This document shows, piece after piece, positions 25,528-45,885 of a stretch of 45,885 nucleotides of DNA. The notes below the pieces were generated by a model. That model did not search any database. It saw nothing but the letters and a program-made list of their open reading frames with translations, and had not been told where the DNA came from. Made by a program: the position numbers and the translations under genes. Source of the DNA: a phage; NCBI GenBank assembly GCA_021146325.1, contig GCA_021146325.1_4321.1; one strand, written 5' to 3'. Position 1 is the stretch's first letter; each line of letters starts with the position of its first letter.

Positions 25528-25603
25528 TGGTGTTCCGCACTGGACTCGAACCAGTAACTAAGACTTAGGAGGTCTTTGCGTTATCCTGTTACGCCAGCAG
25601 AAC
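25528..25603 (-). tRNA. tRNA-Arg (anticodon CCU)
   Basis: 76-nt cloverleaf folded by hand: 7-bp acceptor stem, D-arm GCGT/ACGC, anticodon loop CUCCUAA, T-arm ACTGG-TTCGAGT-CCAGT, 3' ACCA. Confidence 0.8.
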
Positions 25604-38220: not shown

Positions 38221-39930
38221 TCAATCCTCCATCGTAAATGATTTGTTGGCGATAATATCTTGAGACTTCTGGTTTTTACGGTGTGTGATTCTCAATGGGG
38301 CACGGAATAGATGTGCATTTGTCATAATCATTCTAGCATTACGCAATCTGCCAATTCTGAATGCCTCAGTCCTGTTATCGATGTGTGTTGAGCAGAAAGC
38401 CTTCCATTTAACAGAGCAAACGCGATGGTCTGATTCAGGGAAGAATGTTTCATAAGCTCGGAATCTGTCACCACTGTGAGCCATAACCTCATATGAAGCA
38501 ATAATCCCTGACTGGTTCTTTGTTAACCCAATCTTGAAGTCATAAACTCGCAACCAGTCCCCCTTACGATACATTTTTCCTGATAACTTAGCATTCGGGT
38601 CTATGAGCATCTCACCACAGCATCTGCAATTCTTAGCTGCAATATCATTCTTCTCACCGCATCCTTTCTTGATGATAGCTTTGGTCTGTGGGTCCGCTAT
38701 ATCTTCACACAGTCTAAACTGAAAGAAGTGCTCGCAACGCTTACCGTCAATTACATTATTACAACGCCGTGCGAACGGAGAGTTCTCATAAGAACATGCC
38801 GGGCATACCCTAGGTTCATCACCTCCTTTCCTTGATGACTTAAACTTCTGGTCCTGAACTTCTTCTATAATTGGGTCAAAGTAAAGCTCTGCCATATCGT
38901 CAAGCGTTCCGGCGAAATCGAGAACAACATGGTCTTCTTTTACCATCCCTGAATCCTTGTGTTTTTTCTTAAGAATTCGCATACCACGACCAAGCAACTG
39001 AATGAGTAGAGTAATGCTACCAACCTTCCTCAGGATAATGCTTGTATCCCACGGGGGGCAGTTTACGCCAGTTGTGAGGCAACCAATCTGAAATATGAAC
39101 TTATATTCTCCGTTAGCTGCCTTCTCAAGTATCTCTCTACGCTTCTTCTCACCAGTGGAGTTGGTAACTATCGCCCAAGTAACACCTTCTGGAAGTGCGG
39201 CTGCCGCCTCCTCGCAATGCTGTTTGCCAGCGCAAGTTACCAATGCAGCATTCCTTGTTTCCATAAACTTAGCAGCAAATCCCATTATCTTTTGTGTCAT
39301 CGTTTGGTTTTCGTGAATCTTTGCAGCCATCGCATCCATTTCTTTCTTGCTGAAGTCCTTAACCCCATCACTTCCATCAGGAGTGAACTCACTAAGGTCG
39401 TAGCCCAAATCACCAACTTCACCGTAGACAGTAGGAACAACGAACCCCAAGTCAACAAGGTAGCTGGTTGGCACTTGCATTACAGTTTTGCGCCAGAATC
39501 CACGGACATTTGGGTTACTAACTACAATGTGGTCGTTGTTACGGTACGGGCTACCAGTTAACCCAAAGATACGAAGTTCGCGACCGTACTTCTCCTTGCA
39601 TCGACGCTTCATTTCGGTAATGATTAACGTGTATTGCGCGCGACCAGTGCCAAGAAGCCCGGTATTCACACCATCCTTAAAGACCATCTCACCCTTCTTC
39701 GTGCTCATCTGCTCGAATGTTTCCTCATTCTCTTCAGCTTCTACGATATCCATATGGTCCACCATGTGGCAATTATGTGCCACGACCCCGTCAGCAATGA
39801 AATTATGGTGCTCAGGCATCTCTATATCCCAAACAAGTTCCTTGCCAATGGGTGAGATGTCTTTAATTTTGCTTGATTTTGTATTCCACGCCATTTTCCA
39901 TGTGCTTACTAATTCTCTTAAAAAACTCAT
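38221..39930 (-). CDS. SF2 helicase C-terminal gene: C-intein (53 aa) plus C-extein
   Basis: own ATG 39930 with RBS GAGGT; intein block G HNFIADGVVAHN then Cys; C-extein has helicase-like motifs GLTGSP and QLLGRGMR and zinc-finger-like Cys clusters. Confidence 0.75.
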   Translation of the reverse strand: MSFLRELVSTWKMAWNTKSSKIKDISPIGKELVWDIEMPEHHNFIADGVVAHNCHMVDHMDIVEAEENEETFEQMSTKKGEMVFKDGVNTGLLGTGRAQYTLIITEMKRRCKEKYGRELRIFGLTGSPYRNNDHIVVSNPNVRGFWRKTVMQVPTSYLVDLGFVVPTVYGEVGDLGYDLSEFTPDGSDGVKDFSKKEMDAMAAKIHENQTMTQKIMGFAAKFMETRNAALVTCAGKQHCEEAAAALPEGVTWAIVTNSTGEKKRREILEKAANGEYKFIFQIGCLTTGVNCPPWDTSIILRKVGSITLLIQLLGRGMRILKKKHKDSGMVKEDHVVLDFAGTLDDMAELYFDPIIEEVQDQKFKSSRKGGDEPRVCPACSYENSPFARRCNNVIDGKRCEHFFQFRLCEDIADPQTKAIIKKGCGEKNDIAAKNCRCCGEMLIDPNAKLSGKMYRKGDWLRVYDFKIGLTKNQSGIIASYEVMAHSGDRFRAYETFFPESDHRVCSVKWKAFCSTHIDNRTEAFRIGRLRNARMIMTNAHLFRAPLRITHRKNQKSQDIIANKSFTMED

Positions 39931-40910
39931 CTTGTGCCGACCTCGTTGTTATTGATACTGAGTAAAGCTCTCTCTTTTTCTTGCCGCCAATATAGCTTCT
40001 AACCTTAACTCCGTCATTAGCAATAAATGCTATTAGCGCATCAGCTACTGATTGAACTTCACGCCTGCTAAATGATTCGGTGTGGATTTCTACAACCCTC
40101 TTCCCTGAGCTTACAGTGCAATGACCATCATCACCAAAGTAAGCAGCCCAACCAACTGGATCAAGCTCTCTGCATATCTTTCCAATATCGTAACCATCCT
40201 TAGAATTTCCGTACTTATCAGCATATGAATCCAGAACTTTCGTACATGATGTTGATACGCAAAACCAGTTGTCGCCAAATCCAGGGTTTTTCTTCTCCCT
40301 GTATCTAGGGTTTAGTTTTGCAAACCTTTCAACCTTGCTTAGTGCGTGCTCCTTATTTCCAATATTCCAAGATGGCCTATGCGTTCCTTTTCTGTATTTT
40401 TAATCAAGCAACCATCACCAGCCATTGCCGCAAGAATGTTTTGATGTAAAAAGTCATCAACCTCCATTGATGGGTTGACGGTTGAATTATGATGCCCCGT
40501 TCTGTAATCCAAATAGAAATCGAAAGGGTTCTTAAGAAGTACGCCTAACCCCTTGCTTGAATGCGGCATAACTTTTTCACCACAGCCACACTTGCACGCA
40601 GGAGCTTTTTCGTAAATTTGTCCTGCGAGCCGTCTAGCGACAGATTCATCCCAATACAAAGTTTTCCCGCTCCGACCCAGCAGCCGTTCGAATAAAGTTT
40701 GTGTGTACTCGTGCATTTTATTTCCTCTCCGCTTTCTAATTTAATTGATGATACATGTCTTACACCATTAGTAAAAACTCTTTTTGGCTTATGATAGAAG
40801 TAATCACCAGTGCTTTCGTTTATGCATTTTATTTTATGATTGATAAGGTCTTCGCTATCAATCCTCATCATCCCTGAATCGGTGGTTATCATCGTGTCTC
40901 CAGTTAAGCA
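39772..40910 (-). mobile_element. split intein in helicase motif II: N-intein 40548..40910, endonuclease-like remnants, C-intein 39772..39930
   Basis: blocks A (CLTGDTMI), B (IKCTSTHKLY) and G (HNFIADGVVAHN-C); N-intein ends in a stop after 121 residues; intein DNA is 1139 bp, not a multiple of 3. Confidence 0.7.
39863..40740 (-). pseudogene. homing-endonuclease-like remnant split over two reading frames between the intein halves
   Basis: frame 1 ORF 40339..40716 (Cys cluster CKCGCG; ...AMAGDG...), frame 2 open 39863..40399 without a start codon (...IAFIANDG...); family not assignable by eye. Confidence 0.4.
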
Positions 40911-41354
40911 CTCATCTATCGCGATAACAGCAGGAGCATAGTCACCAAGCCCCTTAAACAAGCCGTTAGCAGCCGTTCCCTCACTAGCCACTATGGTTGG
41001 ATAGTAAACTGATTTAACGTTAAGGCCAGCGCAATAGACGCTATTACGGATGCCGAAATTACGAAGTTCCTCTGCGTTCTGGCTGATAATCTCTGACTGG
41101 CGAGATAGGACCATGTAAGGAAGGCCAAGCTGTTCCATTCGTTTCCCAATCATGGCGAGAATAATCGTCTTGCCAGCCGAAACCGATAGGTCTGCTATGA
41201 ATGGCGCTTCGTACTTGCCAATAGCCTTTCCGATTGCGTCAAATGTCACGCACTGGAATGGGTATGGTGTGATTTCTCCGAACTGATAATCATTTTGAAT
41301 CTGCTTGATTTTATCTTGGTCAAAGTTTGCTACTAAGCGTTCTACTGGAAGCAT
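40545..41354 (-). CDS. SF2 helicase N-terminal gene: N-extein (Walker A SVSAGKT ... IAIDE) plus N-intein
   Basis: 269-aa ORF; the extein junction would rebuild IAIDE-CHMV, a DECH box. Confidence 0.75.
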   Translation of the reverse strand: MLPVERLVANFDQDKIKQIQNDYQFGEITPYPFQCVTFDAIGKAIGKYEAPFIADLSVSAGKTIILAMIGKRMEQLGLPYMVLSRQSEIISQNAEELRNFGIRNSVYCAGLNVKSVYYPTIVASEGTAANGLFKGLGDYAPAVIAIDECLTGDTMITTDSGMMRIDSEDLINHKIKCINESTGDYFYHKPKRVFTNGVRHVSSIKLESGEEIKCTSTHKLYSNGCWVGAGKLCIGMNLSLDGSQDKFTKKLLRASVAVVKKLCRIQARG

Positions 41355-41450: not shown

Positions 41451-41924
41451 ATGTGTGAAATTGACAAGCGAACTATTAACGGCAATAACGGGACCGTCCG
41501 CACGCAAGACAAGAAGCAACGCAAGCGACCTTCAGGCTACTACGTATTGAAAGATGAAGTAAAGGCTGGTCTACGCGCGCGTCTGGAAATGATTCTTGAT
41601 TTCTACGGCACGAAAGCCAATATCGCCAAGCAGTTAAATGTATCTCACCAGACTGTAGAACAATGGTTTAATCGCGGGATGATTTCGGCTCGAGGGGCTC
41701 AGAGAGCGCATAATGCGTACAAGCGAAATAAGGAAGGGTTCCGAGCTACATTCTGCCGACCAGACCTGCAATTCGACGGTAACGGAAAGCCGCTAACACT
41801 TCGATGCAAGAAACGCCATATGCTTCGCGTAGTTACCGAGGCAGAACTAGCAATAAAACCACCCTGTCGACCGTGGCGCAAGAATAAGATTGCTAACGAA
41901 GCAGCACGAAAAGCTAAAGGGTAA
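41451..41924 (+). CDS. Cro/YdaS-like HTH DNA-binding protein, putative transcription regulator
   Basis: HTH GTKANIAKQLNVSHQTVEQWFNRG; basic C-terminal half. Confidence 0.55.
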   Translation: MCEIDKRTINGNNGTVRTQDKKQRKRPSGYYVLKDEVKAGLRARLEMILDFYGTKANIAKQLNVSHQTVEQWFNRGMISARGAQRAHNAYKRNKEGFRATFCRPDLQFDGNGKPLTLRCKKRHMLRVVTEAELAIKPPCRPWRKNKIANEAARKAKG

Positions 41925-41930
41925 GTGATT

Positions 41931-41963
41931 GGATGTGCCATAATAGGCACATCCTTTTTTATT
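41931..41963 (+). terminator. rho-independent terminator after the HTH gene
   Basis: hairpin GGATGTGCC-ATAATA-GGCACATCC then TTTTTTATT. Confidence 0.7.
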
Positions 41964-41975
41964 GGAGAGAAGAAA

Positions 41976-42455
41976 ATGAACTGGCATGATTATTTTTACT
42001 ATGTAGATGGCAAATTGCATTGGAAGATTAGCACTGCAAGACGTGTTAAGGTTGGCGATGAGTGCAACTCACTATCTACATCTGGCTATTACAAAGTGTC
42101 TGTTAATGGCTTTAGGACTTATGTACATAGAGTTGTGTGGGAGATGTTTAATGGATAACTTCAAAATGGCGACTACATTGATCATATAAACCATAACAAA
42201 TTAGATAACAGAATAGAAAACCTAAGAGTAACAACAAATCAAGGTAACTCAAGAAATTGCAAGCTTAGCGTTTTATCAACAACTGGTTATTGTGGAGTGG
42301 CAAAGCTAAATCACGGAAAATTTAAGGCTCACATCACGGTTGACGGCAAGCAGCTACACCTTGGTAACTTCGATACTCCAGAACGGGCGTATAAAGTAAG
42401 AATTGAAGCAGAGAGAAAATACAACTTTCACGAAAATAACGGGTTAAGCAAATGA
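41976..42455 (+). pseudogene. HNH homing endonuclease with AP2-like DNA-binding domain, interrupted by in-frame TAA at 42156..42158
   Basis: ...VHRVVWEMFNG [TAA] LQNGDYIDHINHNKLDNRIENLRVTTNQ...GYCGVAKLNHGKFKAHITVDGKQLHLGNFDTPERAY; same frame before and after the stop. Confidence 0.6.
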
Positions 42456-43375
42456 ATTACGATAAGAATGAAGTTATACCTAAGATGGCCGGATTGTGGA
42501 AATCATTTTATGTAAAGGAACTTGGTTGGAATGATAGACACATAAGTAAGAAGCACGGACCATGCCCATGCTGCTTTGGCACTGACAGATTCAGATTTAC
42601 CGACGAAATAGGCAGTGAAAAAGGAAATGGCGCGGCAGTTTGTTCGAAATGCGGAAGTGACTCCGGTATAGGATGGGTCATGAAGTGCACCGGATTGTCC
42701 TTCGCCGATTCAGTAAATTTGCTTGGTGACTGGCTGAACTTAACACCAATTGAGGTTATAGTTAAAGCAAACAAGCAAGCCTCGAGAACTAAGCGTTACA
42801 AAATGGGCGCTCAAGTCGACCATGAGAAAGTCCTGGAGGTTATGGAGAGAACTAAGAGAGTGGAATCGAGTCCACTCACGACATACGAGGGTATTTATGA
42901 CGCGTTTGGTTTTGATGTTGGTATAGCTAAAAATGGTTCAATGATTCACGCAATCCCTTGTTCGATGGTTTATGAAGATGGGCTTAGTGATGAGTTCTGT
43001 AACGTAATGTTTATTGATGAGGATTCAAATGTTAAGTTCCTTGCTGGTGATTACACTCGTGATTCTGTTTCCGTTATTGGTTCTAAGCAGGATGATAGTT
43101 ATACTTATGTTGTTGACAATTATATTGATGGCATACGTGTTCACCTTGCTACTGGTGGGCGCGAAGTGTTTGTTGCTTTCTCCTGTTACAATATGGAGAT
43201 GGTTATCCACCGCGACAAGTCAAGGAAGTTCAGAATTGCTTGCCGTGATTCTGATAGCGATATACTCGCTGTTGCTGACGATAGGGGTGTTGATGTTGTA
43301 GTTCCTAATGACGGTGAGTCATTTAAAACAGGCATACGAAAGAAAGTGTACAAAGCAAACGACTTGCTAAACTAA
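42452..43375 (+). CDS. DNA primase (zinc-binding plus catalytic domains)
   Basis: N-terminal Cys4 zinc-finger-like CPCCFG...CSKCG, 307 aa; upstream of the helicase in the replication region. Confidence 0.7.
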   Translation: MNYDKNEVIPKMAGLWKSFYVKELGWNDRHISKKHGPCPCCFGTDRFRFTDEIGSEKGNGAAVCSKCGSDSGIGWVMKCTGLSFADSVNLLGDWLNLTPIEVIVKANKQASRTKRYKMGAQVDHEKVLEVMERTKRVESSPLTTYEGIYDAFGFDVGIAKNGSMIHAIPCSMVYEDGLSDEFCNVMFIDEDSNVKFLAGDYTRDSVSVIGSKQDDSYTYVVDNYIDGIRVHLATGGREVFVAFSCYNMEMVIHRDKSRKFRIACRDSDSDILAVADDRGVDVVVPNDGESFKTGIRKKVYKANDLLN

Positions 43376-43460: not shown

Positions 43461-45885
43461 ATGGCAATTTATGACTTAGGAACAGCATCACTAGCCTCAA
43501 ATGGCGAGGTTACTGGCGTAGGTACTACATGGAAAGCACCTCTTACACTGATTCGTGTAGGTGCTACTATCATTTTCAAAACCAGCCCTCTGAAAATTTA
43601 CACCATCTCTGAAATCATCAGCGATACTCAGGTTAATGTTTATAATCCAAGTTCTGAAACTGTTCCCGCTGGTACTGGTTACGCAATTCTTGCTCATGAT
43701 GGAATTACTGTTCAGGGGTTGGCGCAGGATGTTGCGGAAACATTGCGTTACTACCAGTCAAAAGAGACTTCTATTGAAAGTCTACTGCAATTTATTGGTC
43801 AAGATACTTTTGATTGGCCTCGTTTTGAACAACTGGCAACTCAGTCAACTACCGGAGCTGCCGAGGCGCTTGCTAGTCAGATCTCTGCCGCTGAGAGTGC
43901 CTCTACAGCGGTAGGTGCTAGCAATAACGCACAAAATTCATATAACAGGACGGTTGCAGCAATAAATGCGGCTGGAAATACAGCGGCTGTTGCTTACTTT
44001 GCTAATCACGGAATAGGTAGCACGACAACGCCATTACTTACCTCTTTAGATTGGCAAACAATGCAATTTTATTCCGGAGGTCGTTATCAGTGCACACTTA
44101 GGAATATGTTAAACACCCCAAAAGAAATTAGTTCAATGTTTCCGGTTTCAACAACTCCTATTTGTATTGATGTTATTGCAACTAGGGGTGTTAATTCGAC
44201 TAGTGTATTAAGGTTATCTCCGTCTACTGGGTCAAACTCAAATTTTAGGATTGCAGATGTCACAATTTCTGGTGCGACTGGATCTAGGGTTTTTTATGTA
44301 AGGGAAGCACTAAGCTTGCCTGGCGGTGATGCTGCAACTGGTGGAGCAAGCGCGTCAAGGGTTAGGGGGTTGCTTGATGTTTACTCAAAATCCGAGACGT
44401 TTCAAAAATCATTGAATCTTTCAGACATTGCAGATAAGTCCGTGGCAAGAACCAACCTTGATGTTTACTCAAAGGGTGAGGTGTTATCAATTTTAAATAC
44501 AGATTCAAAAAGCACATCAAGCTATAGCGACTCAATATCTTCAGCAATAGAAGCCGCTGGCGATGGCGGGTCGGTAGTTATAAGCCCGGGAACTTATGAG
44601 AGTAATAACTACTCCTTTGCTGGCAGGAACATATCAGGCTCTGGATATAATACCGTAATAAGTGTTAAACCTTTTGAAGCCGGACTCACATCAACGCTAT
44701 CGGTTCCGCACTGGAGGCAAAAGCATTTATCGGATTTGCAGTTTACAGGTACTGCAATACAAGGTAATAACGGCTTTCAATTCCCGGATGACCCTTATGC
44801 TGGAAGGGTTGTATTGGATAGGCTTTACTTCAATGACCTGGATGTTGGTATAAGGAAAAATGCTGGCAACATTGGAAATACCTACAGAAACGTAAGTGTT
44901 AGAAATGCGAATTACGGGTATAGAGCAAAAGCTCATGACGAAATGCATATAGGAGCGGACACTTTATACGGATACCACTCAGATACAATCTCTCAATATT
45001 CAGTAATGCTAGATGCGACAAGCACAAGTAGCGCAACGAACCATGGCGCTGGAGGAATTGGTGGGTGGTGGATTAGGGATTCAATAATGGAGGACTCTGC
45101 TGGCGGCGGTATAAGGTTAAAGAATAAACCTGGAGATTGCCCAACATCACCTTGCGGATTGTCTAACGTATGGTTTGAAGCGATAGCAACTGGGGGAGCA
45201 ATTAACGTAGGTGAGGGAGCTGAACTCCCAAGGGTTTTGAAGCTCATCGATACGTCCGTTTTCTTTGCTGAGCATTCTTATATTAATAACATTGAGTTAT
45301 CAAATTCAAACCTTGTAACTTATGGGTGCAGGTTTGATAACGCTGATGGGCACCAAAGTTTCTCTCTTGATTCGAACAGTATTATTTTTGCTAAGGATGC
45401 ATACCTGAATGGATCTTCAACATCAAACGTTATAGTTGAGTCGCTGGTATCACAGACAGCCAAGATAACGGGTACATCTGACTTATCTGTTAGAGGATAT
45501 GTTACTAAAGGTCGAGTTTTTAATCCCGATTCCGGAACTGTTTTAGTCAGGAGGCCTTTTGGTACTGGTGGGAACAACTTTAATGGAACAGCGTCGTCAA
45601 GTGAAGGTTCTGATACAAGGGGTATACACTCGCTATCATCTGGATACTACGAATTGCCTGGTGCGGCTCAGTACGAATTGATAAATGGTGCCTTTAATAT
45701 AACCGCTGGCAAATGGTATGTTTGGGGTATCTCTGCAAACAGAATTCAAGGTGGTGCTGATGGTGTTATCCGTATTTTTGGTAGTGCATCTTTAGGGAAG
45801 GTATTCACTGAGGGCGGTAAGTGGGTTCACACATTTGGAGTTGCTCAGGCTTCAGTCTCTGGCACTGCAAACCTGCATATCAACC
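43461..45885 (+). CDS. tail fiber or tailspike-like protein, 3' end cut by the window
   Basis: open frame of over 800 codons from ATG 43461 with no stop before the window end; Gly/Ser/Thr/Asn-rich repeats typical of fibre proteins; absent from the ORF track. Confidence 0.65.
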   Translation, partial: MAIYDLGTASLASNGEVTGVGTTWKAPLTLIRVGATIIFKTSPLKIYTISEIISDTQVNVYNPSSETVPAGTGYAILAHDGITVQGLAQDVAETLRYYQSKETSIESLLQFIGQDTFDWPRFEQLATQSTTGAAEALASQISAAESASTAVGASNNAQNSYNRTVAAINAAGNTAAVAYFANHGIGSTTTPLLTSLDWQTMQFYSGGRYQCTLRNMLNTPKEISSMFPVSTTPICIDVIATRGVNSTSVLRLSPSTGSNSNFRIADVTISGATGSRVFYVREALSLPGGDAATGGASASRVRGLLDVYSKSETFQKSLNLSDIADKSVARTNLDVYSKGEVLSILNTDSKSTSSYSDSISSAIEAAGDGGSVVISPGTYESNNYSFAGRNISGSGYNTVISVKPFEAGLTSTLSVPHWRQKHLSDLQFTGTAIQGNNGFQFPDDPYAGRVVLDRLYFNDLDVGIRKNAGNIGNTYRNVSVRNANYGYRAKAHDEMHIGADTLYGYHSDTISQYSVMLDATSTSSATNHGAGGIGGWWIRDSIMEDSAGGGIRLKNKPGDCPTSPCGLSNVWFEAIATGGAINVGEGAELPRVLKLIDTSVFFAEHSYINNIELSNSNLVTYGCRFDNADGHQSFSLDSNSIIFAKDAYLNGSSTSNVIVESLVSQTAKITGTSDLSVRGYVTKGRVFNPDSGTVLVRRPFGTGGNNFNGTASSSEGSDTRGIHSLSSGYYELPGAAQYELINGAFNITAGKWYVWGISANRIQGGADGVIRIFGSASLGKVFTEGGKWVHTFGVAQASVSGTANLHIN

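Follow-up and report, generated by a model that had tools for sequence, protein, structure and literature searches.

A free-standing HNH homing endonuclease gene very probably inactivated by a single nonsense codon in a Braunvirinae coliphage

Between a regulator gene and the primase gene of a Braunvirinae coliphage (Drexlerviridae, Rtp/T1-like) lies a frame for an HNH-type endonuclease that is interrupted by one in-frame ochre codon, and the question is whether this frame is a dead gene or still yields a working enzyme. We examined it within the window, the whole 45,885-nucleotide stretch of phage DNA analyzed here, whose structural half is ~89% identical to Escherichia phage ES. The initial annotation, made from the letters alone, had proposed either an endonuclease inactivated by a single nonsense mutation, with the N-terminal fragment alone being made, or low-level readthrough of the stop. 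The positions it gave for the frame (41976-42455), for the TAA (42156..42158) and for the overlap of the final stop with the primase ATG are all exact, as are the peptides it quoted. Of its two proposals, inactivation is the one that our analysis supports, with a Glu codon in place of the stop in all intact homologues and both halves of the frame in one family. Very probably, then, 41976-42455 is a free-standing HNH homing endonuclease gene that was killed by E61*, a selfish element in decay.

The frame opens with an ATG at 41976-41978 and closes with a TGA at 42453-42455, as seen in the translation of 41976-42455. Sixty sense codons, ending ...VHRVVWEMFNG, precede the TAA at codon 61 (42156-42158), and the 98 codons 3' of it (LQNGDYIDHINHNKLDNRIENLRVTTNQ...) stay in frame until the TGA, which overlaps the primase ATG (42452-42454) as ATGA. 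The left flank of the insertion site is a resident transcriptional regulator gene of the HTH type (41451..41924, + strand, 157-aa ORF), whose orthologue in Rtp, rtp52, is annotated as an HTH regulator and which is just 79-90% identical to its counterparts in carriers of the HNH gene. A terminator scan places the intrinsic terminator of this gene at 41931..41964 (+; 9-bp stem within 41931-41954, 6-nt loop, T-run), and the CEB_EC3a record annotates the same hairpin as a terminator. The hairpin is also found in Rtp, which has no HNH gene, and the divergence between the window and Rtp begins directly 3' of TTTTTTATT; the left border of the mobile cassette thus lies immediately 3' of the terminator. 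The Shine-Dalgarno sequence of the HNH gene, GGAG (41964..41967, +), stands 8 nt before the ATG, forms a duplex of -6.4 kcal/mol with the 16S 3' end and is invariant in 8/8 copies. On the right, the DNA primase gene (42452..43375, +) encodes a 307-aa ORF with a Pfam Zn_Ribbon_Prim match and has a weak Shine-Dalgarno sequence of its own.

Both sides of the stop read as one HNH-type protein, as the initial annotation had claimed. The joined translation matches Pfam HNH_3 (PF13392) with 63.7 bits (E=1.2e-17, cut-off 24.8) over model positions 2-46, spanning the stop. When the parts are matched separately, model positions 2-13 fall to the N part and 21-46 to the C part, which reaches E=5e-9 by itself. 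The phrog_99 profile ('HNH endonuclease') aligns contiguously with residues 1-157 (E=1e-56) and also matches the 60-residue fragment alone. HNH_3 and phrog_99 cover both halves, so that the two parts do not belong to unrelated families. The AP2-like C-terminal region is confirmed at the level of the fold, with a sub-threshold Pfam score: the AP2 profile PF00847 gives 13.8 bits, below the cut-off of 33.3, and several homologues have a precomputed PF00847 match. The AF2 model of a 97%-identical intact homologue, P0001 (mean pLDDT 85), has an N-terminal beta domain (residues 7-49), a helix (50-59), a ββα-Me unit (β66-70, β83-87, α88-95) and an AP2 unit made of a three-stranded sheet and a helix (β108-110, β116-122, β125-132, α135-148). 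A Foldseek search with this model returned I-HmuI (1u3e) first, with a probability of 0.99, and plant AP2/ERF domains next, with a probability of 1.0; the AP2 superposition on AtERF1 and TEM1 has an rmsd of 1.0-2.3 Å over 50-58 residues.

The best match among solved structures, in sequence as well as in fold, is I-HmuI (PDB 1U3E), an HNH nicking homing endonuclease encoded in an intron of Bacillus phage SPO1. Both proteins have an N-terminal beta domain, a 'VHR' helix and a ββα-Me core bearing the D-H...N...N pattern, at ~20% identity. [quoted passage not shown] D74, H75 and N96, which are catalytic in I-HmuI (PMC12724721), align with D69, H70 and N91 of the window gene. By this alignment the catalytic-core codons on the + strand are D69-H70 at 42180-42185, N82 at 42219-42221 and N91 at 42246-42248; all four residues are family-invariant, their codons are intact in the window DNA, and all of them lie 3' of the stop. 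The initial annotation had the stop separating the first catalytic histidine from the rest of the motif, which does not hold. Like R52 and G60 in the N-terminal part, H51 of 'VHRVVW' is the same throughout the family, but it lies in the helix preceding the ββα-Me core and does not correspond to the catalytic histidine of the HNH motif, and the stop precedes the core as a whole.

These assignments divide the locus into two remnants. The translated one (41976..42158, +; 60 codons plus TAA) encodes only the N-terminal beta domain and the helix 50-59, with secondary structure taken from the AF2 model of the intact homologue, and its 60-residue product is without any catalytic residue and without the AP2 domain. 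The untranslated 3' remnant (42159..42455, +; codons 62-159 plus TGA) holds the ββα-Me catalytic core and the AP2-like DNA-binding domain (about 42285-42425). An enzyme of the HNH_3/I-HmuI-like family would be encoded by an uninterrupted frame. The frame in the window is interrupted, and judged by its sequence the locus is a pseudogene belonging to this family rather than a working member.

The ancestral state of codon 61 can be read directly from close relatives. An intact HNH gene of 159 codons (480 nt) occupies the same site in eight Braunvirinae genomes, comprising one IMG/VR contig and seven named phages (phiA2-1, TR1, IME542, RobRod40, vB_EcoS_CEB_EC3a, DTL and AugustePiccard, also called Bas01), in which the gene is annotated as an HNH or putative homing endonuclease. 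These copies are like the window gene in site, in length and in their ATGA overlap with the primase, and they are 97.9-98.5% identical to it in nucleotide sequence over all 480 nt. Where the window has the ochre TAA (42156..42158, +), the alignments show GAA or GAG, both encoding Glu61, in 8/8 intact copies. E61* corresponds to one G-to-T transversion at 42156. A sister genome, L011 (GCA_021149145.1), has the identical TAA together with the same five other substitutions that are private to this lineage. Among 22 wider homologues (33-48% identity), position 61 is a sense codon in every one, with a variable residue (E, P, A, S, Q or K). We considered whether position 61 might be a special, conserved residue or a recoding site, and rejected this idea given that variability.

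The five private substitutions that accompany the stop in the window and L011, and that the intact orthologues do not have, are K121T, Q137R, H155N and two synonymous changes. All are 3' of the stop, a clustering that is not significant ((297/477)^5, about 0.09). Counting the stop, six private changes fall in the 480-nt HNH gene and five in the 325-nt linked primase tract, an equal density. The N:S ratio is 3:2 in the window lineage (stop excluded) and 9:4 among intact alleles, and dN/dS is roughly 0.4-0.6, a value that comes from very few events. By private-substitution density and N:S, no relaxed constraint after the stop was detectable. This could mean that the inactivation is recent, or that the gene is near-neutral anyway. 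The stop mutation, shared with L011, is older than the window/L011 split and otherwise undatable.

The distribution of the gene is that of a mobile element. At the same terminator-primase junction the HNH gene is missing from Rtp, CY1, Rao1, ETEP102, CJ19, ES and AN_ECEAS, and in such HNH-less genomes 40-58 nt lead from the terminator to the primase ATG. Among eight carriers (the window and the seven named phages), the mean pairwise identity is 83.8% for the regulator gene, 98.8% for the HNH gene, 98.5% for the first 100 nt of the primase and 76% for the distal (3') primase. The high-identity block runs from ~41940 to ~42780, with 98-100% identity among carriers and flanks at ~80%, and the sliding identity falls to ~80% at 42781-42796 in every lineage. 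Its primase portion, at 42456..42780 (+), is 98-100% identical among all HNH-gene carriers. The window primase is only 63-77% identical to that of the HNH-less CY1 up to ~42690, and 82-100% identical after that point. The endonuclease gene therefore travels with a distinct allele of the N-terminal (zinc-ribbon) region of the primase, about 240-330 nt in length. Presence/absence polymorphism combined with a high-identity tract is the usual signature of homing with co-conversion. Because the HNH gene travels together with a distinct primase 5' allele, these data suggest that the target of the enzyme lies in the HNH-less primase 5' allele, which the intact protein would cut. Free-standing homing endonuclease genes of the T4 SegG type show co-conversion from a distant cut site. 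They are like the window gene in that a fixed tract of a neighboring gene travels with the endonuclease gene, although SegG is a GIY-YIG enzyme and the window gene encodes an HNH protein.

Two further features of the cassette concern its recent history and its junction with the primase. The window and L011 are identical over 1355 nt centered on the cassette (41661-43014) and differ by 0.5-0.9% on both sides. A longest-gap test under a uniform model gives P of about 0.005 for such a stretch, which may reflect recent recombination of the cassette region. At the junction, the primase Shine-Dalgarno duplex in HNH carriers is worth -3.2 kcal/mol, compared to -6.4 in CY1 and -7.1 in AN_ECEAS, both HNH-less. 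The weak primase Shine-Dalgarno sequence and the ATGA overlap suggest that primase translation in carriers is coupled to the HNH ORF, in which case the nonsense codon would uncouple it from the upstream ORF. Ribosomes halt 294 nt earlier in the window than at the normal HNH stop. Since the lineage persists, the supply of primase must remain adequate. It is a possibility that primase synthesis falls measurably once the upstream ORF is no longer translated, and that the nonsense codon is in this sense a regulatory mutation.

Could the frame nevertheless give rise to an active enzyme? If the TAA were an error of sequencing or assembly and the gene really intact, one would expect a single-base difference from all database copies, as is seen, and an exact 35-mer around the TAA had no match in an IMG/VR scan. 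Yet the same TAA is read in L011, a second NCBI assembly that differs from the window in 37 places over 6.4 kb, counting substitutions and indels, among them an 84-nt indel in the tail-fibre gene and a 1-nt indel in the helicase region. Position 42156 likewise opens a TAA and not a sense codon in a Logan contig from run DRR314303, which was assembled by a different pipeline and shows 100% identity with the window across 6183 nt; an exact-sequence look-up has the 60-aa HNH product on record from this contig. The TAA allele was located by searching for exact matches to the 60-aa and 92-aa products, L010 reads TAA at codon 61, and the stop context (AATGGATAACTT) is not a homopolymer. We regard an error as close to negligible. 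Because the same TAA occurs in the non-identical L011 and in the independently assembled Logan contig, the nonsense codon is an inherited mutation of a small lineage, with the caveat that the window and L011 may not be wholly independent of each other as samples. A leaky or suppressed stop, by which readthrough or an ochre-suppressor host would supply enough full-length enzyme for function, is very unlikely. Small amounts of protein suffice for homing endonucleases, the frame 3' of the stop is still open as far as the normal TGA, and the stop is followed by C, a weaker termination context for UAA in E. coli. However, UAA is recognized by both release factors, and we found no suppressor tRNA in the window, whose sole tRNA gene encodes tRNA-Arg(CCT) (25528-25603, - strand). 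The stop is conserved in no relative, contrary to what programmed recoding would lead one to expect, and the private H155N alters a conserved C-terminal HxNHG motif. The readthrough proposed in the initial annotation is therefore unsupported. We give still less weight to a two-piece gene, in which the C-terminal part would be translated separately as an active or partly active nuclease of 92 aa from an ATT at 42177. PGAP called this ORF (P0042) in both NCBI records, and it holds D69, H70, N82, N91 and the AP2 domain, but it is without the N-terminal domain and its family-invariant H51, R52 and G60. Initiation at ATT is very poor, and the in-frame codons between the stop and codon 108 include no ATG, GTG or TTG. 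The first canonical in-frame start, a GTG at 42297, lies beyond the catalytic core. No Shine-Dalgarno sequence could be placed at either site, the best duplex near the ATT being -3.1 kcal/mol and 20 nt upstream. A paralogue or second HNH_3 gene that might act in trans was sought in the window, and none was found.

The remaining alternatives accept the loss of the enzyme and differ in what that loss means. The HNH protein might have a housekeeping role, for example as an accessory of packaging or replication, such that its loss would be a functional defect and not the decay of a selfish gene. Some phage HNH proteins are indispensable partners of the terminase (PMC5304195), and the ATGA overlap links the HNH gene translationally to the primase. 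A housekeeping gene would not be expected to be missing in many close relatives at the same site or to be far more conserved than its flanks along with a linked tract. The HNH gene is also far from the terminase, and an I-HmuI-like protein with an AP2 domain has the architecture of a described homing endonuclease family; a housekeeping role is in our judgment highly improbable. Finally, the dead allele may persist or spread as a 'disarmed' cassette, in which the linked and presumably cleavage-resistant primase 5' allele would confer immunity to the intact copies of co-infecting phages without the cost of a nuclease and the enzyme of a co-infecting phage could mobilize the cassette in trans into HNH-less genomes, or else the nonsense codon may act as a regulatory mutation. 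The one hint of a disarmed cassette is the 1355-nt identity of the TAA genomes around it, given its P value, but we consider either version unlikely.

Taken together, these observations support a model in which the HNH gene would have passed horizontally from one Braunvirinae (Drexlerviridae) coliphage to another, entering the spacer that separates the regulator terminator from the primase and taking along about 240-330 nt from the 5' end of a distinct primase allele. In the window lineage, a G-to-T change at 42156 would then have converted Glu61 (GAA) to an ochre TAA. Ribosomes that start at ATG 41976 would release the 60-residue fragment, and the nuclease would be dead because this fragment is without D69, H70, N82 and N91 and without the AP2 domain; the dead allele should make no active enzyme. 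Such a lesion would be tolerated and inherited because the gene is dispensable. The window allele would represent the degeneration stage in the life cycle of a homing endonuclease, which leads from invasion through fixation and decay to loss.

Comparable genes have been described elsewhere. Homing endonuclease genes that combine HNH with a C-terminal AP2 domain have been described as a family from phages, cyanobacteria and protists, including the 'IPA-HNH' genes of Vibrio phage ICP1 (PMC10448857). ICP1 homing endonuclease genes are located at the boundaries of recombination tracts, and one HNH-AP2 copy, gp115-gp116, was judged to be inactivated by a frameshift (PMC10448857). The ICP1 IPA-HNH proteins are thus like the window gene in their N-terminal HNH and C-terminal AP2 domains and in having an inactivated example. 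They differ in that their atypical HNH domains are missed by Pfam HNH_3, whereas the window protein matches it strongly, and in that the ICP1 copy is frameshifted whereas the window gene has a nonsense codon. In lactococcal Skunavirus genomes, 56/268 HNH genes are truncated remnants (PMC12724721). These genes resemble that of the window in being variable, dispensable, I-HmuI-like and part of the replication module, but the Skunavirus remnants are mostly partial deletions, and the window gene, which keeps its full coding length, is at an earlier stage of decay. For the HNH-primase locus itself, a search of papers on Drexlerviridae or Braunvirinae turned up generic mentions only.

Several observations on the records and on the rest of the genome stand apart from this argument. 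The NCBI records of the HNH gene (HBM2054250.1 / HBM2295317.1, from the window contig and the 34,803-bp L011 contig) give a 92-aa 'HNH endonuclease' with an ATT start at 42177, a call that is probably an annotation artefact of the pseudogene. P0043, which belongs to the 68-member 90% cluster of P0001 and lies on a 45,624-bp NCBI contig, is a 103-aa protein that starts at M57, with E61 intact and an H119Y change; it could represent a separate event that disrupted this HNH gene at its N-terminal end. An identical 159-aa coliphage HNH protein is also filed at NCBI under Nitratidesulfovibrio liaohensis (WP_167124427.1), where phage contamination of the assembly seems likely. In the tail-fibre gene 3' of the primase, the window and L011 differ by an 84-nt in-frame indel (window 44373-44456) and a 3-nt indel (44506).

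The DExH helicase gene of the window (38221-41354, - strand) is split inside motif II (DE/CH), whereas the helicase of Rtp is a single protein of 664 aa. The N-part ORF (40545-41354, -; 269 aa) ends ...AIDE/CLTGDTMITT... and the C-part ORF (38221-39930, -; 569 aa) begins M...VWDIEMPEHHNFIADGVVAHN/CHMVDH.... The two parts carry the N- and C-splicing halves of an intein (CLTGDTMI... and ...GVVAHN/C), and between them lies a LAGLIDADG gene (window 39862-40569, -). Because the N part, the LAGLIDADG gene and the C part are in different frames in four genomes (the window, L011, ES and AN_ECEAS), the locus is a natural split intein or 'fractured gene', in an E. coli phage lineage that can be cultivated, and not a contiguous intein. 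It is laid out like the 'fractured genes' described for split inteins that are accompanied by a free-standing endonuclease gene (PMC2677866), and the helicase would need to be rebuilt by protein trans-splicing. The LAGLIDADG gene is intact in L011, ES and AN_ECEAS, and its 235-aa ORF, annotated or called in L011 and ES, matches Pfam LAGLIDADG_2 (E=4e-7). The window copy has lost 1 nt near 40387, which turns an A5 run into A4 and shifts the reading frame, and the Logan contig has the same deletion. The window genome thus contains two selfish endonuclease genes, both with inactivating lesions.

Inactivated homing endonuclease genes are common in phages, and the window case is an ordinary and well-precedented one. 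The element is already known through the intact copies annotated in several GenBank phages. Its relevance is mainly for annotation, in that the locus should be labeled as an HNH-AP2 homing endonuclease pseudogene, and for phylogenies, in which the HNH-primase region should be avoided as a recombination boundary. For the biology of these elements, it offers a clean natural example of the earliest step in the decay of a homing endonuclease gene, with full length retained, one nonsense codon, and inheritance in at least two genomes. The near-identical intact copies in cultured phages (DTL and AugustePiccard/Bas01) provide a convenient matched pair for studying homing, marker exclusion and coupling to the primase.
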